A stretch of DNA of 64,000 bases, from contig JAGIQG010000006.1 of the NCBI GenBank assembly GCA_024679065.1, positions 54,436,001 to 54,500,000 on the forward strand, read 5' to 3'. Below, in pieces: positions 8,475-63,980 of the stretch. The notes under the pieces are model-generated. The model was not told the DNA's origin. It saw only the letters and a program-made list of their open reading frames with translations, and ran no database searches. Positions within the stretch are counted from its first letter, which is position 1. Each line of letters starts with the position of its first letter. A program made the translations under genes and the position numbers. The DNA is from Sphyrna mokarran. Its lineage: Eukaryota.

Positions 8475-8619
8475 GGATGTAGAGATGCCGGCGTTGGACT
8501 CGGGTAAACTCAGTAAGGGGTCTGACAACACCAATTTTAAATCCAACCGATTTATTTGATAGTAAACTTGCTAGCTTTCGGCCTTTGGTGCCTTTGTCAG
8601 GCGAATGAGGTGTTAAGAG
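8475..8619 (-). mobile_element. Solo Penelope-like terminus (family B) with decayed hammerhead
   Basis: 11-bp TSD CTCATTAAGAA (8464-8474, 8620-8630). Minus strand reads CTGACAA-A-GGCAccaaaGGCC-GAAA-GCTA. Homologous to 32020-32257. Confidence 0.85.
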
Positions 8620-9320: not shown

Positions 9321-9610
9321 TAGCTGTGGACAGATGGATCTCAGCTATTGCCCTGGCACTCTATGCTAAAAAGGGCACAAGTAAATATGTCATGTTTTTA
9401 TTGTAAATGCCTGGCGTGATGTTATCATGATGTTAAATAGCCGTTCCAGCTGATCTGTTGTTAGATTCAGGAGTTTTGTTGCACATGTCCAAATGACACC
9501 TGTGCTGATCATTCCTGGCTGATCAGGTATTAAGTAGCACAAGAGTCTCCCATTTCAAAGGTCAGACACCAACCTGTAGGAGAGGTGTTCTTGACTGCTA
9601 TGTTATGTTA

Positions 9611-9730
9611 TGGAGATGCCGATGTTGGACTGGAGTGGGCACGGTAAGAAGTCTCACAATACCAAGTTAAGGTCCAACAGGTTTATTTGGTATCACAAGC
9701 TTTCAGAGCGCTGCTCCTTCATCAGATGAC
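9611..9730 (-). mobile_element. Penelope-like terminus (family A)
   Basis: Homologous to 13034-13165; contains a hammerhead motif. Confidence 0.85.
9692..9730 (-). ncRNA. Minimal type-I hammerhead ribozyme motif, core intact
   Basis: GUCAU-CUGAUGA-A-GGAGC AGC GCUCU-GAAA-GC-UU-GUGAU; stems I and II pair. Confidence 0.6.
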
Positions 9731-10887: not shown

Positions 10888-11049
10888 AAAAGCAAAATGC
10901 TGCAGATGTTGGAGTAATCAAAACCAGAAAATGCTGGAAAATCTCAGGTCTGACAGTGTCTGTGGGGAGAGAATAGAGCCAATGTTTCATGTCTCTCCCC
11001 ACAGTTGCTGTCAGACCTGCTGAGATTTTCCAGCATTTTCTGTTTTTTT
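10888..11049. mobile_element. Palindromic mini-element made of two Penelope family-C termini
   Basis: CAGAAAATGCTGGAAAATCTCAG-GTCTGACAG..TGTGGGGAGAGA is inverted with TCTCTCCCCACAG..CTGTCAGACC..CTGAGATTTTCCAGCATTTTCTG; left arm matches 16520-16620. Confidence 0.8.
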
Positions 11050-11845: not shown

Positions 11846-13033
11846 AAATCACAATATCACTCTTGTGTGATTTGAATTTCATTTAGAATTTTTCAGACTG
11901 GATTCTTTTCCCAAGTAATCTGCATCTTGTACGATCAAGATGAGACCCAATTTTGTGCATGCTTATTTCTTTTCTAGTACTCCTGAGGCACTGGTGTTCA
12001 CAGGATTTTGTAGACATCAAAAATGAGCTCTGTTGGTCACTTGAGTGAGGTGGCCATTTTATCTGGAACACTACCCAGAACAAAGGTGAGAACACCTGAA
12101 CAAAGGAAACAGAGAAAACTCATCAAGGTAATATTTAAAAATGTTGGGTAAAATGTTATTCTGGTGATTTTTGGCAAACTTCAGCTTTTGCAAAGTGTGC
12201 CTTATTAGAAAGCAGGACAAGTCCCCAGTACTCTTCTAATTACAGACTTGACTTTTCACTCTAGTGTTACAACACTTACCGACATTCAACCCAGTTAATT
12301 TCAAGTGTGAGCAAGGAAAAGGAAAAAAACACTCTTCATTGGGCCTTTCCTCAGTGCCTTGATTTGTGGTTTGGCCTCCAGGTAGAAACTGAACTGTCCA
12401 AAGAGCTGTCTTTAATCTCAGAATCAAATTATTTCAGAAGGCACCATGTGTTCCAGAATTAAAAGGAGCTCCCTAGGCTGTGCCTGAGAAGAAAACATCT
12501 TCTACTTTCCATCTTCCTTCTTAATACCGAGGGAAGATCTGATCATGGTGGAGAGTTATGTTATATAGCTCTTTACCCTTTTAACTAATGAAACTCCAGA
12601 TTCTCACCGCAACGTTACAATTTATCCTGGTCAATTCTGACTGACTATCAGCCTCAGGGCAGACCATGAAAACGAAAGCAGTGAATGATGGTATCTGTGG
12701 GTGTTTCATTTCTAGGTGTGATAATCAATCACTGTTATATGAAGTAATGAAAAAAATTCACAACTGATAAAAATCCTGAAAAAAAATTACATGCAACTAT
12801 TAAGCAGCACTTCTAGTCAGAAGATTATAAAGGGCAATGAATTTACAAATAAGAATTTGCTTCCTAAAGTCTATAAAATTAAATTCAAACTTGTTTACTA
12901 TTTGCCAACCCTAATTTAGTGTGAGTAGGAAGGCAGATTCTTTCTTGAGTATACCATTTATCACAACTGAATCAACAAACCTTCACTGATTGTCCATCTC
13001 CTACAGGACTCACCTTCTGTGCCAATTAGGAGG

Positions 13034-14296
13034 ATGTGGAGATGCCGGCATTGGACTGGGGTAAACACAGTAAGAAGTCTCTCAACACCAGGTTAAAGTC
13101 CAACAGGTTTATTTGGTAGCAAACACCATTAGCTTTTGGAGCACTGCTCCTTCGTCAGGTGAGTGGGGAGTTCTGATCACAAACAGACCACATAAAGGCA
13201 TTCCCTCAGTTTACAGAATATTAATTAGAATGTGAGTCTTTACAGCTAATCAAGTCTTGAAGGTGCAGACAATGTGAGTGGAGATAGCATTAAGCTTAGG
13301 TTAAAGAGATGCATATTGTCCCCAGACAGTACAGTAAGTGAGAGATTGCAAGCCTAGGCAAGTCATGAGGGTTAAAAATAGTGTGCCAAGATCTCGATTG
13401 AGTCCATCCTCATGTTTTCGGAACTTGGCTATCAGTTTCTGCTCAGCGACTCTGTGCTGTCATGTGTTGTGAAGGCTGCATTGCAGAACGTTTGCCTGAA
13501 GATCAGAGGCTGAATACCCGTGACCACTGAAGTGTTCACCAACAGGAAGAGAACAGTCCTGTTTGGTGATTGTCGAGCAGTGTTCATTCATCCATTGTCA
13601 TAGCGTTTGCACGGTGTCTCCAATGTACAATGCCTTGGAATATCCTTTCCTGCAGCATATCAGGTAGACAACATTGGCCGAGTTGCAAGAATATGTACCA
13701 TGTACTTGGTGGATGGTGTTCTCACGTGAGATGATGACATCCATTTCGATGATCCGGCATGTCTTGCAGAAGTTGCTGAGGTAGGGTTGTGTGGTGACGT
13801 GGTAACTGTTCTCCTGAAGGCTGGGTAGTTTGCTGCAGACAATGGACTGTTTGAGGTTGTGTGGTTGTTTGAAGGCAAGAAGTAGAGGTATGGGGATGGC
13901 CTTGGCAAGATATTCGTCTTCACCAATGAAATCTTCAACATGTCATTGAAACTGATAGCCAAGTTCTATAACATGAGGACGGCCTCAACCAGGATCTTGG
14001 GTTCATGTCACACTTTTTGTAACCCATATAACTTGCCTTTACTTGCAATATCTCACTTCTTATGCCATATTGGGACAATACACATCCCTTTAACCTATGC
14101 TTAATGTTATTTCCACTTGCATTGTCTGCACCTTTAAGACTTGATTAGCTGGAAAGACTCGCATTCTAATCAGTATCCGGTGCTTGTGCCTTTCTATGCC
14201 CTGTTGCGATCAGAATTCCCCGCTCACCTGATGAAGGAGCAGTGCTCCAAAAGCTAGTGGCGTTTGCTACTAAATAAACCTGTTGGACCTGTGAGA
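13034..14296 (-). mobile_element. 5'-truncated Penelope-like element (family A) with inverted pseudo-LTRs
   Basis: 12-bp TSD CCAATTAGGAGG (13022-13033, 14297-14308). Inverted repeats about 13098-13440 and 13950-14288. Internal minus-strand GIY-YIG remnant (SCNSANVVYLICCRKGYSKALYIG...VGEHFSGHG). Decayed hammerhead in each arm. Confidence 0.92.
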
Positions 14297-14691: not shown

Positions 14692-15352
14692 AAGAACATA
14701 GAACATAGAACATAGAACATTACAGCACAGAACAGGCCCTTCGGCCCTCGATGTTGCGCCGACCAATATAAAAAGCAATGCCCCTCCAAACTAAACCATT
14801 TCCTTCTCTTCCATATACTTATCAACTAACCTCTTAAACGCCACCAAACTTGGCGCATCTACAACCGCTGCAGGCAGGGCATTCCACTCCCGAACCACCC
14901 TTTGGGTAAAGAACCTGCCTCTGATATCCGTCCTATAACTATCACCCCTTAATTTAAAGCTGTGTCCCCTCGTGCTAGCTTTTTCCATCCTAGGAAAAAG
15001 GCTATCACTGTCCACCCTATCTAAACCTCTAATCATCTTATATGTTTCGATCAGGTCCCCTCTTAGCCTCCTCCTTTCTAACGAAAACAACCTCAAATCC
15101 CTCAGCCTCTCCTCATAAGACCTGCCCTCCATACCAGGCAACATCCTGGTAAACCTCCTCTGTACCCTCTCCAATGCCTCCACATCTTTCTTATAATGTG
15201 GGGACCAGAACTGCACACAATACTCCAAGTGCGGCCGCACTAGAGTTTTGTACAGTTGCAACATGACGTTGCGGCTCCGAAATTCAATCCCTCTACCAAT
15301 AAAAGCCAAGACTCCATATGCCTTCTTAACAACCTTCTCGACCTGACTGCCT
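14692..15352 (-). mobile_element. Young 5'-truncated CR1/HER1 LINE with open ORF2 C-terminus (14791-15309)
   Basis: [20 protein letters not shown]...RRLRGDLIETYK...FFTQRVVREWNALP; (AGAACAT)n tail; 7-bp TSD ACTTACA (14685-14691, 15353-15359). Confidence 0.95.
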
Positions 15353-16519
15353 ACTTACAGCAGCTTTTGACAAATGGAGAGACTTGATTAATATAATCTG
15401 CCAGCAAATCACAGGTCAGTCCAGCCCCCCGGGGGCGGAAAGGGACATATCTGGTCTGCACCATGGCATTGGCCCCATTACTGCTGGAGATACTGCTGAA
15501 TCACTGCCAATGGGTAAGTGCTGGGAGCACTACCTGGGGACCTCCATCAGGGATCTTACAGGGTGCAGGGGGCTTCCCTGTCAGTGGGGCACAGGGTAGT
15601 GTACTCTGCATGATCAGTTTCCTTGGGTAGGCTTCCATGGGGTATTTCTATTCATATTTTTATTGCTTTTAGATTAGAGTGCCCTTTAAAAATAGTGGCC
15701 CGATCTGCCAGGGGCCTATGTTGTACTTACAGCATCTTTCATTTTATTTCAAAATGTTTGGAAATGTTGGCGGAAAACCTGTCAAGGGAGTTAACTGGCT
15801 GCCTTTTGCTTTTCCCAATGAGGCAACACTGAAAAGAAATCATAAAATTCCAGCAAAAAAGGGCAACTGGTTCACATTGGACAGGTTCATGTGACTCCCC
15901 TGTTCCCACTCATTTCACCTCCAAGCTCAAAATATAAGAATATTTATTGTGAACCATGAATGGAGTAAATCATTTACACATTGTGATTTTTCTGATTCAG
16001 ATTTTCAGTAATTATTATAAATGTGAAGCAATGATATAAACTGAAACTTTAAATCCCCAGTCAATCAGAGCAAGAAATATAAGAAAAGTAGGGTCATTGC
16101 GAATAGCTTCCAGCATCCTGAGTTAACTCCTGTTCTTCTCACAACATAGACATATGGCTGGAATCTCTTCAAAGCTGCACTTGTTCCACTGCTTTAATTT
16201 TTCCAGAAGTGTGGTAGAATCCAGGTTTACACACATAAACTGGGCATTCCCAGCGAAGATCTCTTTGGCAGGGTCGGCATAACACAGAGAAAAGACTCAG
16301 CCTCTGTTCTTGATAAACTTGATTTAAAGTTGAATCCAATGTTAATAAGCAATAACACCAACAGTTTTGGCACCACCTTGGGGATATTAGCTTTGTTAGA
16401 CTAGGATTGACATGTAAGGCTCAGTTTCCTAGCAATACACCGCCTCACTGGGACCAAAAATGGCAGGCAGGAACGATCGCTTCTGATATAGTGGGTCAAG
16501 GCAAAGGCCTTCTTTATTG

Positions 16520-25486: not shown

Positions 25487-26221
25487 ACACAGAAGATTGA
25501 TCTTCTGCTGCAGCACTCAGATTTCTGGTAGAAGCAGCTGATATTGCAATGGAAACTGATACACTGAATATCAGTTTGGGCCCACTTATGTTATTCATGC
25601 TGGAAAGGATAGGCTTCCCAAGCTTTGGACAAACCTTTCACCAAATTCATGCCAGACTGCTCCTTGTCATTGAGAACAGGTTTTCTGGCAGGCCTCCCAC
25701 TCTGACCTTGGGCAAGTTGGCCCTTGTTCTATTCTTGCTCTGACTGCAGCATACTTTTGTCAGGTGTTTCACTCGATGCAATTTGCCTCTAACCTAACCT
25801 CTAAGATATGTATGATATCAATATCTGAGCTTGTGGCTTTAACTGTAAGATTTACTGACAGACAGCATCAAAAAGAGAAAAGGTACAAGAATAAGATTGG
25901 GATGTGGGGAGGAAGGGAAAGTAAGAAATACATGCTCAAACATCTTGTAATTGCACCCCCCCCACCTGACTTACCCCACTTAGATTTCCTCCTGCCTACT
26001 GTTTGAAAGCCTTGGTGGTCATTCTCTTCAATGGTCAGTCCTTGTTGTTTGTTACACTGCACAATGCTGAATGATGCTGACTTCAGCAGCCATAATCCCT
26101 TTAAGTAGTGCAGGCTAACTTTAAGTAGTACCAGAAAGTAACAATATTGGGCTGTCTGCGGTAATGTGTGCAACTAATGAAGAATGCAGTTACTACTGGC
26201 TGCAAACAGCTATCATGGTAA

Positions 26222-27159
26222 TAAGTCACTTGGAATACTGCGCCCAGTTCTGGTCTCCGTACTATCGGAAGGATGTGGAGTCCTTGGAGAGAGTGCAGAG
26301 GAGGTTTACCAGGATGCTGCCTGGTATGGAAGGACTGTCTTATGAGGAACGATTAGATAGACTGGGGTTGTTTTCCCTTGAAAGACGTCGGCTTAGAGGG
26401 GATCTCATAGAGGTGTATAAGATTATAAGGGGTATAGATAGAGTAAATGGAGGTAAACTTTTTCCACCTTTAGAAATGGATAGGACGAGGGGTCATGGCC
26501 ATAGGGTGAGGGGGGCTATGTATAAGACGAATATTAGAGGGCAGTTTTTCACACAAAGGGTAGGGGGGGTGTGGAATGCACTGCCGAGTAAGGTGGTGGG
26601 AGCAGGCACGCTGGGGCTGTTTAAGGGTCTCTTGGACAGCCACATGAGCGGTATGCAGATAGAGGGATATAGTAGGACTGTTTAACTACGGCTTTTTTCC
26701 ACAGGTAATTCGGTCCATAATTTGAGCATGCATTCGGCAGGTGGTGCGGGTACAGCTCTTGGATGTTGATTCATGGGTTGCCTGGTACCTCATGTCGTAA
26801 ATGAGTGCTTTATGTGGACCATCTGAAGGGCACCATGACAGCTCAGAGACTATCGATGTGGCTGTGCAGACACTTGGAATTGGGCCGGTGTCTGCGGGAG
26901 TTTGCGCGTTCTCCCCGTGGTTGCGTGGGTTTTCTCCGGGCACTCCGGTTTCCTCCCACAACCCAAAAATTCGCTCTTAGGCTGATTGGGAAACAAATTG
27001 TCCCTATGGTGAAAATTTTCCATATTAGGAATAATATATATATTATTATATAGGAATATTAAAATAGGATAATGTATTTGCTACTATATAGTATGACGGC
27101 GGCGCGGGCTCTTTGGGCCGAAGGGCCTGTTTCCCGTGCTGTGTTGCTTAAAAAAAAAA
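26222..27159 (+). mobile_element. Young 5'-truncated CR1 LINE with a long 3'UTR containing a V-SINE domain
   Basis: Open ORF2 C-terminus to the stop at 26685 (HLEYCAQFWSPYYRKD...RRLRGDLIEVYK...FFTQRV). V domain 26888-27005. CR1 terminal motif GGGCCGAAGGGCCTGTTTCCCGTGCTGT, then A10. Confidence 0.9.
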
Positions 27160-31492: not shown

Positions 31493-32019
31493 AGCATTTC
31501 CAGCATTTTCTGCTTTTATTTCAGATTTTCAACATCCACAGTATTTTGTTGTTATTTTAGCGTTAGACAGTGGAAATCTGTTTCAAATCTCTTCTTCATT
31601 CCAACCTGAACCCACCAATCACCAAGCTCACATTCATTTCATACTCCCCATTACAATATTGTCTTGCCCAATGTCCAACAATAGAAGCCAATAGTAGGAA
31701 CATTAAGAAAAACAGTGAAGTTTATTTATTAATCACAAGTCATCTTACATTCATATTGCTAGGGAATTTTCACAGTAACTTCATATCTGTATGAATGTAA
31801 GTCTATTTGCAAGAAAACATCTTTATCCAACAACAAATCCATTAAGACTTGCAACTATCGATTATACACTGTTGTGCAATGTCTTTGTACCTTTCCGGCA
31901 GATGTGTTTCCCTGTTCTAGAGCACCTGCACCGTGTTATTCAGTTGTTGCAGCATGGTTGGTGGAAAGCTATTAACTTCCAGTGGGAGGAGATGGCAAGC
32001 TTTGGACTGCACCATCTCA

Positions 32020-32257
32020 GTAAGAGGTCTGGCAACACCAATTTTAAATCCAACCAATTTATTTGATAGTAAATCTGCTAGCTTTCGGCATTTGTGCCTT
32101 CGTCAGGCAAATGGCCATTTGCCTGTTGAAGGCACAAACGCCAAAAGTTAGCAGATTTACTATCAAATAAATCGGTTGGATTTAAAATTGGTGTTGCCAG
32201 ACCTCTTACTGAGTTTACCCCAGTCCAACGCCGGCATCTCTACATCATGACTACTAT
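32020..32257. mobile_element. Hairpin mini-Penelope (family B): two back-to-back termini plus a 3' tail
   Basis: 13-bp TSD CTGCACCATCTCA (32007-32019, 32258-32270); near-perfect palindrome 32016-32213 centred on 32114/32115. Confidence 0.92.
32074..32111 (-). ncRNA. Minimal type-I hammerhead ribozyme, core intact
   Basis: UUUGC-CUGACGA-A-GGCA CAAA UGCC-GAAA-GC-UA-GCAGA: 5-bp stem I, 4-bp stem II, palindromic AGCU stem III, CUA cleavage triplet. Confidence 0.75.
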
Positions 32258-32699
32258 CTGCACCATCTCAATAGGGGTGGCAGCTGAGTGTGATCCACAA
32301 TGGCACAAATCGTCCTGAGAATGAACAGAACCTGTGGAACAGAACCAGTGGAACACCCCCAGGTTGGAACTTCAACAATCCTGTAATTTGCTCGAGTAAA
32401 GATTGTCTTATTGTAGTCAAAACCTGAATGCCCCTCTGCAGTCACATGGCAACAGCTTAAATCTACATGGCAGCAGCATTGGATCCATGACCTCTGGAGG
32501 AGCTTTCACTGAAGCAGTGAGATTTCAGGAGGATTTTGCCTGTACTGTATTGGAAGTGGAGATATCTGACACTCCATCATGGGTTGATTTGGCAGCACTG
32601 TTGTGGAGTTGCCCATGGAAAAGGTGGAACCAGGGTCTTTGGAACAAGGCTCCATTTTGGCCCTGAATAGTGACTTTGGCCAGACAATTGGAAGACCAC

Positions 32700-34170
32700 T
32701 AAACATTGCAATGCTATTTAAAAAGGGAAAAAAGGACAGAATGAATAATTGCACATCAATAAATTAGTGTTGGGTAAATCATTGGAAAAAATGTGATTTG
32801 AAAAGGCATGTAGGGGAATCAAGAGCAGTCAGCATGCATGTGCTCCTGTCTAACTAACTTGATGAAGTTTCTATGAGTGAATAGCAGAAAGGGCTGTCCA
32901 TCTACTTGTCATCCACGTGAATTTTAGCAACATTATTGACAAGTTCCCATGTGGCAAATTAGTCAGAAATTAAAGAGTTGTGGGATCCAAGGGCATGTGG
33001 CAAATTGGTTTCAAAATTGGTTCAGTGACAGGGAGCAAACCGTTATGGTTAATAGGCCTTTTTGTACTTGGAAGGCTTTTTCAGTAAGCTTTGTATTAGA
33101 TTCGTTGCTGTTCATTATATTATCAATGACTTAGGTGCAAAGATAGGAACTGATGTGAAGAAGTTTGCAGATGATGCAAATATCAACTGCATAGGGGAGT
33201 GAAGTGAAAAATGGAATTCAATCCAGAGAAGTGTGCGGTAATGCATTTGGGGAGGACAAACAGGGAAAGGGAATACAATAAATGGTAAGATGCAGAGAGT
33301 TTATAAGAATAAAAATATCTTGCAGTGCATATCCACAGATCCCCAATATAGTAGGACAGGTGAATAAAGTAGCTAAGAAAGCTTTCTTTATTGGTTGAGG
33401 CCTAGAAGAGTATAAAAACTGTGCTAAATCTCCATAATTGACTTGTTATACCACAGCTAAAGGAGTGCGTACGGTCTGGTCACCACAATATAGAAGGGGA
33501 TTATTTGCACTAGAGATGATGCAGAAGAGATTTATGAGAATGTTGGCAGGAATAGAGAATTTTACCTTTGAGGAAAGATTGGATATGCTGGAGTTGTTTT
33601 CTTTGAAACAGGAGGACGAGGGGAGATTTTTCAATGACTTGTATAAAATTATGAGGGGCTGAGATAAATCGAACAAACAAATTGATTTCCCTTATCAGAA
33701 AGGTCAACCAGAAAGCACAGGTCTAAAGTAATTGGTTGGGCGATTAGAGGAGAATTAATTGTTGTGAAGGTATTGGTTACAAAATGGTCCTCATCATCTT
33801 CAGGTTAACTGTAAGTCTTTATTAGCAAGTAGAACTATTTACACAGGTATAATAAAGGACTCAACAGAGAAGTTATCACTGTGCTTAGGTCTTTCCATGT
33901 TTCTGTCTGAATACCACACTGACCCTTCAGTCTGGGTCGTGTGCCTTCTTATATCACCATGTGGTGGTACTGTACTCTACGTACACTACCACCCTATATG
34001 TGCCCTATTTGTGCCAAACCTTTATGCTACATTAATTTTCTTTTTCGCCCAGAGGGTATTGGGGTCTAGAACTCTACCTGAAAAGGCAGTAGAGGCTGAA
34101 ATCCTCACAGTGTTAGAAAAAAACACTTGGCTATGTATTCGAAGTGATGTTACCCACAAGGCTATGGACT
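32700..34170 (+). mobile_element. Degenerate CR1 ORF2 (RT to 3' end), interrupted by a solo LTR
   Basis: KLKSCGIQGHVANWFQNWFSDREQTV, KFADD, WSPQYRR..ALEMMQKRFMRML motifs. Confidence 0.85.
33760..34031 (-). mobile_element. Solo LTR (272 bp)
   Basis: TG...CA ends; 5-bp TSD TTAAT (33755-33759, 34032-34036); minus-strand ATATAA and AATAAA; splits the CR1 just before its FFAQRV motif. Confidence 0.85.
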
Positions 34171-48332: not shown

Positions 48333-49274
48333 CTTAGAACCATAGAACACTACAGCACAGAAACAGGCCTTTTGGCCCTTCTTAGCTGTGCGGAACCATT
48401 TTTCTGCCTAGTCCCACTGACCTGCACCCCTCTCATCCAGGTACCTGTCCAAGTTTTTCTTAAATGTTAAAATTGAGCCCGCATTTACCACTTCATCTGG
48501 CAGCTCATTCCACACTCCCAGCACCCTCTGTGTGAAGAACCTCCCCAAGCCCCTACAATATTCCCTTTAAACTTTTCCTTCTTCATCCTTAACCCATGTT
48601 TTCTAGCTTTTTTCTCCCCTAGCCTCAGTGGAAAAAGTCTGCTTGCATTCACTCTAACTATGACCATCATAATTTTATACACCTCTATCAAATCTCCCCT
48701 CATTCTTCTATGCTCCAGGGAATAAAGTCCTAACCGATTCAACCTTTCTCTGCAACTCAGTTTCTCAAGTCCCAGCAACATCCTTGTAAATCTTCTCTGC
48801 ACTCTTTCAATCTTATTAATATCCTTCCTGTAATTAGGTGACCAAAACTGTACACAATACTCTAATTTTGGCCTCACAAATGTCTTATAAAACGTCACCA
48901 TAACATTCCAACTCATACTCAATACTCTGATTTATAAAGGCCAATATTCCAAAAGCACTCTTTACAACCCTATCCACCTGAGACACCAGCTTTAAGGAAT
49001 TATATATTCTCAGATCCCTCTGTTCTACTACACTCTTCAATGTCCTCCCATTTATCTTGTATGTCCTACCTTGGTTTGTCCTTCCAAAGTTCAATACCTC
49101 ACACTTGTCTGTATTAAACTCCATTTGCCATTTTTCAGCCCATTTTTCCAGCTGTTCCAAATCCCTCTACAAACTTTGAAAACCTTCCTCACTGTCCACT
49201 ACACTTCCAATCTTTGTATCATCAGCAAATTTGCTGATCCAATTTACCACATTATCATCCAGATCATTGATGTC
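48333..49274 (-). mobile_element. CR1/HER1 LINE (RT C-terminus to 3' tail)
   Basis: ORFs 48485-48922 and 48885-49160 (WAEKWQMEFNTDKCEV, VRPKLEYCVQFWSP); KFADD; (AGAAC) tail. Confidence 0.92.
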
Positions 49275-52365: not shown

Positions 52366-52453
52366 GATTACCTGTAAAGACTCACATTCCAATCATTATT
52401 TTGTAAATTGAGCTTGAGTCTTTACATGCCTTGTTTGTGAACAGAACTCCCAC

Positions 52454-52490
52454 TTACCTGACGAAGGAGGAGCACTCTGAAAGCTAGTGG
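52454..52490 (+). ncRNA. Minimal type-I hammerhead ribozyme motif, core intact
   Basis: UUAC-CUGACGA-A-GGAG GAGCA CUCU-GAAA-GC-UA-GUGG. Confidence 0.6.
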
Positions 52491-52858
52491 CTGTTGCTAC
52501 CAAATAATCCTGTTGGACTTTAACCTGGTGTTATGAGTCCAATGCTGGCATCTCCACATTATAGTTACTTTACGCCAATCTTCATGGTGGAAGAAACCAG
52601 TGGGATGTCAGAGCTCCAGGAAAATCAGGGGGCACAAATGAGGGCCATCAATAAAGAAAAGGTCCTGGGAAACTGAAAAGTTTGAAGGCAGATAAATCAT
52701 CTGGACCAGTTGGACTACACCCAGGGTTCTAAAAGAGAAAGCTGAGGAAATTGTGGAGGCATCACCGGAGATAGAGAGAGTCCTAGAGGATTGGAAGGTA
52801 GCTAATACAACACTATTGTTTAAGAAAGGAAGGAGGCAGCAGAAGGGAAATTATAGCA

Positions 52859-57537: not shown

Positions 57538-59460
57538 TGATTTGATTTGTTGTTGCCACATGTATTAACATACAATGAAGAGTGTTGTTTCTTGTGTGGT
57601 ATGTAGACAGAGCATGTTTTCAGAAAAAGAAATGAGAGAGTGTAGAATGTAATGTTACAATCATAGCTAGGGTTTTAAAGAAAGAGTAACCTAATGCAAG
57701 GTAACTCCATTCAAAAGTCTGATGGCGACCGGGAAGAAGCTGTTCTTGAGTCGTTTGGTACGTGACCTCAGACTTTTGTATATATTTTTCCTGACAGAAG
57801 AAGTTGGAAGAAAGAATGCGTGGGGTCCTTAATTACGCTGGCTTCTTTGCCAAGGCAGCGGGAAGTGTAGACAGAGTCAATGGATGGGAGCTTGGCTTTG
57901 TGATGGATTGTGCTACATTCCTAACCTTTTATAGTTCCTAGCAGTCTTGGGCAGAGCAGGAGCCATGTCATGATATAATATAACCAGAAAGAATGCTTTC
58001 TATATTGCATCTGTAAAAGCTGACATGCCAAATTTCCTTAGTCTTCTGAGAAAGTAGAGACGTTGGTGGATTTACTTAACTACAGTGTCGGCATGGGAGG
58101 ATCAGGACAGGTTATTGGTGATCTAGTCACCTAAAAACCTGAAGCTCTCAATTATTTCTGTTTCATCCCCATTAATATTAGACAGGGGCATGTTCTCCTC
58201 TATACTTACTGAAGTCAATGACAACCTTCTTCGTTTTGCTGACATTGAGGGAGAGAATATTATTGCTGCACCAATTCAGTAGATTCTCTAACTCATTCCT
58301 GTACTCTGTATCAACATTGTTTGAGATCTGACCCATTACAATGATATCATCAGCAAATTTGAAAATCGAGTTGGTAACGAATTTGACCACACAATTATAG
58401 GTATGTAAGAAGTAGAATAGAAGGCTGAGAACATAGCCTTGTAGGGCATCAGTGTTGAGGATGATCGTGGAGGAGGTTTTGTTGTCTATCCTTACTGATT
58501 GTGGTCTGTGAGTTAGGAAGTTCGGGATCCAGTCACAGAGCGAGGTGCCGAGGCCCAGGTCATGGCGTTTGGAGATGAATTTCATGGGAATAATGGTATT
58601 GAGGGCTGAGCTGTAGTCAATAAATAGAAGTCTGACATAAGTGTCCTTGTTGTCTATGTATTCCAGGGTTGAGTGCAGGGCCAGGGAGATGGCATCTGGA
58701 AGGGACCTGATGTGGCTGTAGGCAAACTGTAGTGGATCCAGGTAATCTGGGAGGGTAGAATTGATTCATGCCATGACTAGCCTTTCAAAACACTTCATAA
58801 TGATAGATGTCAGAGTCACTGAACGATTAAGGTACACTGCTTGGTTTTTCTTAAGTACCAGGATGATGGTCATTTCTTGAACAAATAAGAATTACAGATT
58901 GTTGTAAAGAAAGATTGAAGATGTATGTGAATATTCCCGCCAGCTGATCCGTCAGGATCTGAGTGCTGGTCTGGGTATCCATCTGGGCCAGTCACTTTCT
59001 GTGGGTTGACTTTCAAGAACGGTGCTCTGAGATCTGCAATGCTGACTCCAGATACAGGTTCATCCAGGGCTTGCAAGTTGGAGAGCATGTTTTCACTGAT
59101 CTTTTGCTCAAAATGAGCGTAGAATGTGTTGTTCTCATGAGGGAGGGATGTGTTGGAATCGGCGATACTACCGACAATCCATCGACTCCAAGCAGCCCAT
59201 AGGAGATTATCCAATTCTTCAGAACAACGTTGCACAACTTTCTTTGTTGGATTCTCCTGCTTCAGTTTTTACTTGTAAACCAGGAGCAAGAGTACAGCCT
59301 TGTGATCTGATTTGCCAAACTGTGGGCAGGTGATAGAGTGGTAGGAATATTTGATATTTGTGCAGCAGTGGTCTAGGATGTTTGGTCCTCTGGTGGAAGA
59401 GAAGACATGCTGGTGGTAACTTGTAGAATGCTTTTGACCTTGGCCTGATTGAGCTTGGCC
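57538..59460 (-). mobile_element. Rex1/Babar LINE (APE end, RT, 3' tail), apparently inserted in a short MITE (57514-57537 plus 59461-59595)
   Basis: [36 protein letters not shown]; (TTTGA)n tail; possible CCTGAT TSD. Confidence 0.9.
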
Positions 59461-60493: not shown

Positions 60494-60603
60494 GCCTTTT
60501 GCCTCGCAGATTTACTATCAAATAAATCGGTTGGATTTAAAATTGGTGTTGCCAGATTCTTACTGAGTTTACCCCAGTCCAATGCCTGCATCTCTACATC
60601 ATG
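60494..60603 (+). mobile_element. Penelope family-B terminus with tail; hammerhead deleted
   Basis: Near-identical to 32151-32250; 8-bp TSD ACATAATC (60486-60493, 60604-60611). Confidence 0.88.
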
Positions 60604-60865
60604 ACATAATCACTACTGTCAGAGTACTGGATTGCATGATTGACAACCAAGGACATACAAAAGCAAAGGTTTATTGATAACCTGAGTTACTGCGCGTCTG
60701 CCCATTCTTTGGGGAGCGTCTTCCCAAACTCCCAACACATGGCCCTTATGCATCCATGTCATCCCAGTGTCCACATGACCACTCAGTTTGTAACTGCTCT
60801 CCCATATTGCTAGCATGAGAACAGATGCAAATAAAAGCAAACATGCTGTTTGTTCTAGTTCTAAC

Positions 60866-62835: not shown

Positions 62836-63880
62836 ACACTGGATTGCTTGAGTTGTGCTGGTACAAGTCATGCCCTTGTCTGCCCCTGAGGAATCGAGGT
62901 AGAAGTGGAGCTATGCAAATAAATTCCACCCCCAAAATCTTTTCAGCTTCCATTGAATTTGTGCCAATAGAAAACTTGGGTATCTGAGAAGGAATGAAAA
63001 TAAAAGAATCCCTCCAAAATGCCTTGACTAATACCATAGCTCACATAGGATTCAATGTCCCCAGTTGTCTAGGTGCATAGTTACAGAATGACGTGATGTA
63101 CAAAAGGCTCATCAGGAAATTAAATTGTATCTCACTTCTTGTACATCTCTTCAATGTTGATGTTGGAAACTGTACTAGAGCAAAATCCATGTTGTCAACC
63201 TCTTGCTGAGCTTAATGATGATTTCATCTAGTTAATAGCATTGCTAAGAGTACTTAGAAATGACATCTAGTAAACAGTAAAGTAGTTTTTACTTAATTAA
63301 TTGGCCCCTGCCTGTTGTTAATAAGCTTAATTGATGTTTTGTGACAATTTCACAAATTGTTTTCAACATTGCAACTAGTGTGAGAAACTGGTAACTTTTG
63401 TCTCCAAGAGACAACTGGTCTTGTGAAACAAACTGGTGAAATAAAGTAAGATGGGAGATGTATCTAAAATTTGTACACTGGCAAGGAGTGTTTGCATAAA
63501 CAATCAGATTCTGTGCTGTAAATTCCATGTAATTTGTGAACTAAACACTGCTACTTCCAACTGTCTTAATTTTGTGCAAGTTGAATTACAGGAGGACATG
63601 TTTGTTACTAAATCACAAAATGTGATTGCAGTTCAAAAATATTTCCACTCTGGCAGCATGACTGAAATTTTCCGTGAATGTACTACTGCTATGGAGTAAA
63701 TTCTCCAAGTCTATTCATAAAGTAGGGCATCATAATAAATTACAGGGCATATAACTCATTCTGAAACTCTCTTAGACATGTTGCATTGTTGATTCTATAA
63801 ACACAGATGTGGCAAAAGAGTTGATGTTGCATTTGTGAAAAGGGAACTAGATACAATCCTCCTGCTATTATTTAATGAGA

Positions 63881-63980
63881 ACTCAGTAAGAATTTAGCAA
63901 CACCAATTTATAATCCAACCGATTTATTTGATAGTAAAAACGCGAGCTTTCAACACTCTGTGTCTTCTTCAGGCAAATGC
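63881..63980 (-). mobile_element. Penelope family-B terminus
   Basis: CTCAGTAAG..CAACACCAATTT..ATCCAACCGATTTATTTGATAGTAAA, homologous to 32016-32114. Confidence 0.85.
63941..63975 (-). ncRNA. Minimal type-I hammerhead ribozyme motif, core intact, covariant stem II
   Basis: UGC-CUGAAGA-A-GACAC AGA GUGUU-GAAA-GC-UC-GCG. Confidence 0.65.

Follow-up and report, generated by a model that had tools for sequence, protein, structure and literature searches.

A heavily truncated, head-to-head Penelope-like insertion in Sphyrna mokarran, probably built by priming on both strands

Insertions in which an inverted truncated copy and a tail lie within one TSD have been described for Penelope-like elements (PLEs) in excerpts of PMC8557442, PMC3846280 and PMC8969392. 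More specifically, the text and Fig. 2 legend of PMC8557442 and the passage on Pen2a_Av in PMC3846280 present EN+ PLE insertions that combine a 5'-truncated copy in inverted orientation with a tail of 30–40 bp on one side only. Self-priming was put forward for the inverted copies in PMC3846280, the excerpted text of PMC8557442 calls the formation of PLE inverted repeats and tails undefined, and neither account, in the parts cited here, gives a target consensus or an arm-length coupling. According to excerpts of PMC4209133, metazoan PLEs carry hammerhead ribozymes whose cleavage is low and dimer-dependent, and Schistosoma has opposite-strand pairs of them, 100–700 bp apart, that come from truncated PLEs. 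For Poseidon_Ac (PAc), an anole PLE studied in vitro, the excerpts of PMC11167929 report that the protein, a predicted dimer, cuts and extends both strands, that two adjacent internal positions delimiting the tail serve as start sites for copying, and that the ribozyme is unnecessary for insertion. Finally, the excerpted part of bioRxiv 10.64898/2026.07.22.740005 describes non-LTR retrozymes as non-coding, hammerhead-bearing elements that derive from PLE pLTRs and consist of head-to-tail tandem monomers.

In this study, we analysed a stretch of 64,000 nucleotides of the Sphyrna mokarran genome (the window), in which a sequence-only reading had singled out positions 32007–32270 as a mobile hairpin made of two hammerhead ribozymes. 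The layout of this locus has already been published for PLEs, and the family-level rules presented below are a modest, testable addition. Much of the geometry that had been read from the letters was confirmed: a 13-bp exact direct repeat (32007–32019 and 32258–32270), extendable in neither direction, brackets 238 bp in which an inverted 5'-truncated pLTR end without a tail (32016–32114, minus strand) and a direct one (32115–32213, plus strand), 99 nt each, meet with zero spacer and six mismatches, followed by a one-sided tail of 44 nt (32214–32257, plus strand) in which the last part of the 5' leader passes into the beginning of the ORF. On its outer side the inverted arm ends at the fixed pLTR/tail boundary of the family. 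Since this arm overlaps the left TSD copy by the latter's last 4 nt (32016–32019) and the first base of the right copy is common to the element, the TSD is partly microhomology. At the centre (32114–32115) two non-family bases join arms that are truncated at the same position; at the centre position the family has T in 40 of 40. Compared with the published EN+ PLE insertions, as excerpted, both parts are cut to 99 nt with no ORF body between them, and TSDs in this family measure 12–13 bp rather than 8–10 bp.

The minus strand carries a putative minimal type I hammerhead motif (32073–32112) whose core, as had been claimed, is intact (CUGACGA...GAAA GCUA), with a predicted cut between 32079 and 32078 and, within the motif, an AGCU palindromic helix III region of the dimer type. 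The plus-strand motif (32117–32156) is indeed mutated (CUGUUGA/AAAA), having four substitutions of which two are at CpG sites. The two cores are ~20 nt apart, in contrast to the 100–700 bp given for the Schistosoma pairs in the excerpts of PMC4209133. Stem I had been placed 3 nt from the axis, which is close, but it can start 2 nt away (AUUUGC/GCAGAU). The whole hairpin folds at -156 kcal/mol (z -23.6), with none of 200 shuffles equally stable. In contigs of sequencing run X1, which may represent the assembly's own sample, the left flank joins the inverted arm (31531–32042) and the tail joins the right flank (32230–32800), each with 0 differences. No contig bridging the hairpin centre was among those listed for four sequencing runs, no empty site was found in the sequencing-run contigs, and no RNA run holding the hairpin was listed; these three results carry no weight either way.

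Relatives were sought in the 2.77-Gb genome. A DNA search returned 2229 candidates, and nearly all of the 40 that were scored are hairpins of the 32007–32270 type. Copies were also sampled by tail-side patterns that are blind to the centre, so that hairpins were not favoured, in four sets, each consisting of the first matches in contig order. Set A (90 of 149 matches) and set D (90 of 174 further copies) belong to the subfamily of the 32007–32270 hairpin, set B (90 of 1131 matches, 84 scored) to a younger sister subfamily, and set C (70 of 3864 matches, 69 scored), a noisy set, to an older relative; the six set B copies and one set C copy left out have a sense arm that runs off the fetched stretch. 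Inner ends were scored against multiple references, as scoring against one reference produced spurious pile-ups for sets B and C at points where alignments ended in the variable loop II.

The arms represent the pLTR, or 3' end, of a putatively Neptune-type Penelope-like retrotransposon, in agreement with the Penelope origin that had been proposed. Long set A copies continue from the same pLTR into an ORF, and four copies of the same subfamily (L056, L121, L131 and L140) reach the 3' part of the ORF with a GIY-YIG match that falls below the cut-off (E 0.003). A copy of the sister subfamily, L153, ~91% identical over 1.3 kb, has an uninterrupted ORF of 892 aa, in which RVT_1 was matched at E 4e-10 and GIY-YIG at E 4e-4, the latter falling narrowly short of the Pfam cut-off, and the intactness of this ORF indicates that the sister subfamily is young. 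The pLTR and tail of L156 and L157 run directly into an ATG, an order from which it follows that the tail at 32007–32270 ends in the first four codons (M-T-T-I; 32247–32258, plus strand; read from L153, L154, L156 and L157) of the parent RT and GIY-YIG ORF. The statement that the element has no coding sequence was therefore nearly right, except for this ATG and the codons after it. Tails measure 28–42 nt in 95 relatives, against 44 nt here. The L153 ORF has a linker of the form C-X4-C-X2-C, a pair of Cys flanked by the GIY and YIG equivalents, and a DKG motif, matching the CX2-5CxxC linker, two cysteines inside GIY-YIG and DKG that the excerpted text of PMC8557442 lists as Neptune and Nematis features; the linker is thus shared with Nematis, and the assignment to Neptune is made from motifs rather than from a tree. 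The insertion at 32007–32270 has the features of an EN+ Penelope-like insertion, namely a link to an ORF with RT and GIY-YIG, the order pLTR, tail, ORF, and an inverted truncated copy within one TSD. Open frames of 717–945 aa were also observed in L152–L159 and L162, several of them in kilobase-scale head-to-head layouts. The pLTR end and tail start at 32205–32223 resemble a branch point and a 3' splice site just before the ATG, which is a resemblance only; PLEs keep a 5' leader intron.

An inverted arm is present in 230 of the 333 scored copies (~70%), adjoining in 67/90 of set A, 56/84 of set B, 46/69 of set C and 61/90 of set D. The lengths of inverted arms extend from 18 nt to 1.9 kb and are continuous into ORF-bearing copies; L056 has the layout of the 32007–32270 hairpin in a copy that reaches the ORF, with a 13-bp TSD. 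The outer edge of the inverted arm falls within ~10 nt of the pLTR/tail boundary in 57/65 (A) and 51/61 (D). Five copies (L072, L074, L080, L097 and L133) have inverted arms that start ~50 nt further in (-47 to -61), at a second TTTAC motif that resembles the main outer edge, and this class possibly represents an alternative start site.

The target site is also regular. A TSD of at least 9 bp was found in 95 of the 102 set A and B hairpins with an outer edge near the pLTR end, compared to 1 of 102 controls, and its length is 12 or 13 bp in 60 of the 95. CTG stands directly left of the TSD in 56/95 (reversed control 2/95) and CAG directly right of it in 55/95 (reversed control 4/95), against a background of 14%, and the spacer between CTG and CAG is 16 nt in 19 of the 39 measurable cases. 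The insertion target is symmetric, CTG-N16-CAG with a ~12-bp TSD, and the site at 32007–32270, TTG-N16-TAG, is a near match to it.

Taking locus and family together, 32007–32270 is probably a heavily 5'-truncated insertion of a Neptune-type PLE, its two ribozyme-bearing ends head to head, likely built on site by cutting and priming on both strands. An enzyme, probably a dimer, would nick a loosely palindromic CTG-N16-CAG target with a stagger of ~12 nt; one nick would start copying at the tail end, the other ~35 nt upstream at the pLTR end. Both copies would stop early, usually at similar positions, whereupon host repair would join the two cDNA ends (with 2 extra bases in 32007–32270) and then fill in, and the hairpin stub would subsequently decay neutrally. 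Tails end between +28 and +42, and inverted arms start near 0; combining these data with the excerpted account of PAc in PMC11167929, we infer that one start site per nick would yield a head-to-head pair with a one-sided tail. PAc, in those excerpts, is a Poseidon element and so of another clade than the Neptune-type family, it prefers ATT/AT-rich cut sites rather than CTG-N16-CAG, and the scenario given for it does not derive the inverted arm. To the full specification, in which a dimeric Penelope enzyme at a palindromic CTG-N16-CAG makes nicks ~12 nt apart and two cDNAs ~35 nt apart on the same RNA, with palindromes as the default (~70% of insertions), we give an even chance. In L1 twin priming, a second nick primes a second cDNA, producing a 5' inversion inside one TSD, and what is inverted comes from another stretch of the RNA, further upstream. 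The two primings proposed here differ in that they would copy the same RNA stretch, with a palindrome as the result. Our literature searches, made mainly among openly accessible articles, listed no paper on a CTG-N16-CAG consensus, arm coupling, either arm being the longer, or twin priming for PLEs.

The published idea of self-priming is the alternative that survives best, although we consider it unlikely. It would also explain a one-off origin within this family, with the nascent strand folding back to prime the second arm and later deletions making the arms unequal. Coupling of the inner ends of the two arms is its direct prediction, and the coupling is tight (rho 0.83 in set A, 0.68 in B and 0.79 in D), with inner ends within 20 nt of each other in 41/67, 28/56 and 39/61, respectively, compared to ~11, 8 and 12 by permutation; in set C rho was 0.51 and the count within 20 nt was not beyond all permutations. 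The arms at 32007–32270, truncated at the same base, conform to this pattern. Priming on both strands needs an added assumption here, either one shared RNA or synchronous copying. Similarly, the arms are mostly of one source variant, in 19/26 of set B (24% when shuffled) and 16/32 of set A (38% when shuffled, and not beyond the shuffles), which fits fold-back and would fit two-strand priming if both copies usually read one RNA. However, the tail-less arm is the longer by >20 nt in 16/67 (A), 16/56 (B) and 15/61 (D), that is, in 47 of 184 hairpins, some of them extreme (1045 vs 58, 1810 vs 578, 571 vs 125), and simple fold-back of a tail-bearing cDNA is insufficient to produce such arms; the tail-bearing arm is the longer by >20 nt in 29 of the same 184. 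In L073 and L108, moreover, two arms with different loop-II variants lie under one TSD. Arms that are unequal or mismatched could also result from gene conversion or from deletions that affected one side at a later time. Self-priming would also face a target motif that is symmetric on both TSD sides and would require a separate explanation for the fixed outer edge. Overall, the symmetric target, the coupled truncation points and the fact that either arm may be the longer favour two-strand priming over the published self-priming.

The proposal that the hairpin is an undescribed, non-autonomous double-hammerhead element, derived from a hairpin master copy and transposing as a unit, fared poorly and is now very improbable. 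Short hairpins in which both ribozyme regions are complete are a common size class (11/90 in set A and 7/84 in set B), and 39 other near-full-length matches were present among the 40 candidates scored, as such a unit would lead one to expect. However, the search for copies with the same axis and independent TSDs matched only the locus itself: its centre junction pattern, with four degenerate positions and no other mismatch allowed, had one match in the genome, a stringency at which a sister copy that has decayed might escape notice. Inspection by eye of the 29 closest look-alikes showed a different centre in every one and a constant outer edge of the inverted arm. Inner-end pairs are distinct in 124 of 128 inverted copies (sets A and D), the three recurrent pairs all being ≤62 nt and devoid of a complete ribozyme, and the continuum of lengths up to ORF-bearing copies also argues against a unit, as does the rod transcript, which, in the folding model, would lock both ribozymes. 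Variable axes elsewhere, which the sequence-only reading had itself named as grounds for abandoning the idea, are what the genome sample contains. Of the fixed axis, what stands is that many junctions lie immediately 5' of the ribozyme (28/84 furthest ends in set B at -84 to -116, none at -117 to -131), but the exact axis of 32007–32270 is private. Many copies sharing ends and an internal junction, as in a SINE-, MITE- or retrozyme-like unit, were found neither by the genome-wide junction search, nor among the look-alikes, nor in sets A and D. A non-LTR retrozyme was considered and rejected, as the ribozymes are on opposite strands of a single unit, with no head-to-tail monomers; compared with the excerpted description of those elements, the locus is head to head, single, and has a private junction. 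Short inserts copied from nearby element sequence are frequent at the centres (seen in L074, L089, L181, L336 and L389), as would be expected of polymerase-theta-type end joining. L044 and L046, ~90 Mb apart on one contig, have element and flanks in common, which indicates that they were duplicated together with the surrounding repeat DNA.

Rearrangement after insertion, through either two independent insertions or the inverted duplication of one arm, is similarly improbable: L055, whose arms come from two subfamilies and for which no TSD was found, suggests that such events may occur, but a single TSD brackets both arms at 32007–32270 and in 95 of 102 relatives, and ~70% of copies have an inverted arm whose outer edge is fixed. 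An assembly artefact, a fold-back chimera of a long read, is barely conceivable, with nothing positive for it and against it the six sites at which the arms differ (four being CpG transitions), the TSD, both outer junctions in the X1 contigs with 0 differences, and a layout common to hundreds of relatives.

The ribozymes merit separate consideration. Mismatches had been said to cluster there, and five of the six arm mismatches do lie inside the ribozyme span; they cluster because four of the arm's five CpGs lie in that span, four of the six mismatches being at CpG sites. By side, the plus arm has four changes and the minus arm two. The contrast of an intact and a mutated ribozyme fits CpG decay and carries no signal. 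Selection for one working ribozyme per hairpin was considered and rejected, as neither side is favoured: among 37 set A hairpins both motifs are intact in 12, only the left in nine, only the right in eight and neither in eight, and among 26 set B hairpins the corresponding numbers are 12, eight, five and one. The suggestion that a rod-like fold outcompetes the ribozyme agrees with our modelling, in which forcing stems I and II would cost ~44–45 kcal/mol on either strand. On either strand the motif would be transcribed after its own complement, and in a 32007–32270 transcript the ribozyme would, by prediction, remain trapped in the hairpin.

The minus-strand motif has the attributes of PLE-type minimal hammerheads, including the CUGANGA/GAAA/UH core, an extra nucleotide after A9, G10.1-C11.1 and a palindromic helix III. 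These match the features in the excerpts of PMC4209133, the motif being known here from sequence. Across 240 motif instances, which are related and were picked by core pattern, stem II pairs in 94–97%, its second pair being G-C in 117, G-U in 84 and A-U in 32, and the AGCU helix III region occurs in 229; the hammerhead motif looks to be under selection in the source elements. An Rfam search of 32007–32270 gave no hammerhead match and four weak microRNA matches, as chance would give for a hairpin, so the ribozyme call rests on the motif reading together with the stem counts. Isolated arms of 65 nt fold no better than shuffles (z ~ -1.1). In set B, the young source variants differ greatly in loop II and keep the pairing of stem II, and loop II would work as a natural barcode for the source element. 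A further candidate, the ribozyme cut as the template's 5' end, was dropped. In set A, 15/90 copies have their furthest 5' point within 11 nt on the 3' side of the cut and 0/90 within 11 nt on its 5' side, with bins set post hoc, and this failed replication with fixed bins in set D (8 vs 7 among 90 further copies from the subfamily of set A) and set B (3 vs 3 in 84); the older and noisy set C gave 12 vs 4 of 69. In vivo cleavage is not claimed. A GATTTA/TAAATC microhomology explains some junctions near the cut, and a transcription start near -110 is suggested by the set B edge, which is blurred in sets A and D.

Other members of the family occur in the window. Single arms with a tail and short flanking repeats are present at 8476–8607 (minus strand) and 60503–60605 (plus strand), the start of the latter nearly coinciding with the predicted ribozyme cut, and a further arm at 63880–63979 (minus strand) lies so near the window end that its partner would fall outside. 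An older relative of the set C type forms a head-to-head pair (13033–13439 and 13948–14288) whose members are separated by ~500 bp and flanked on the outside by a 12-bp direct repeat; its layout is that of 32007–32270 on a larger scale. The older relative has also left decayed pLTR ends, several of which hold hammerhead cores, at 9602–9692, 49360–49452/50137–50236 and 52450–52562. A fold-back of ~128 bp with 81% complementarity at 10920–11047 belongs to a different repeat family. Open frames at 14791–15354, 26125–26685, 48485–48931 and 58178–58765 are like LINE reverse-transcriptase fragments, which we take to be CR1- or L2-like.

The locus at 32007–32270 is itself ordinary debris, a real, very short, decaying stub of a known element class. 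PLEs are the closest mobile relatives of telomerase, and the value of these observations lies in the family rather than in this one locus. Thousands of such insertions give measurable rules, namely a symmetric target, a ~12-bp stagger, a fixed second start site and coupled truncation. They also imply very many latent hairpins in the genome, which may be a source of dsRNA where they are transcribed. If the two-fold symmetric reaction is true, it would settle the origin of PLE inverted repeats and one-sided tails and supersede the model of self-priming; it would also provide, by name, a vertebrate Neptune ORF that is nearly intact and a target sequence for a direct test.
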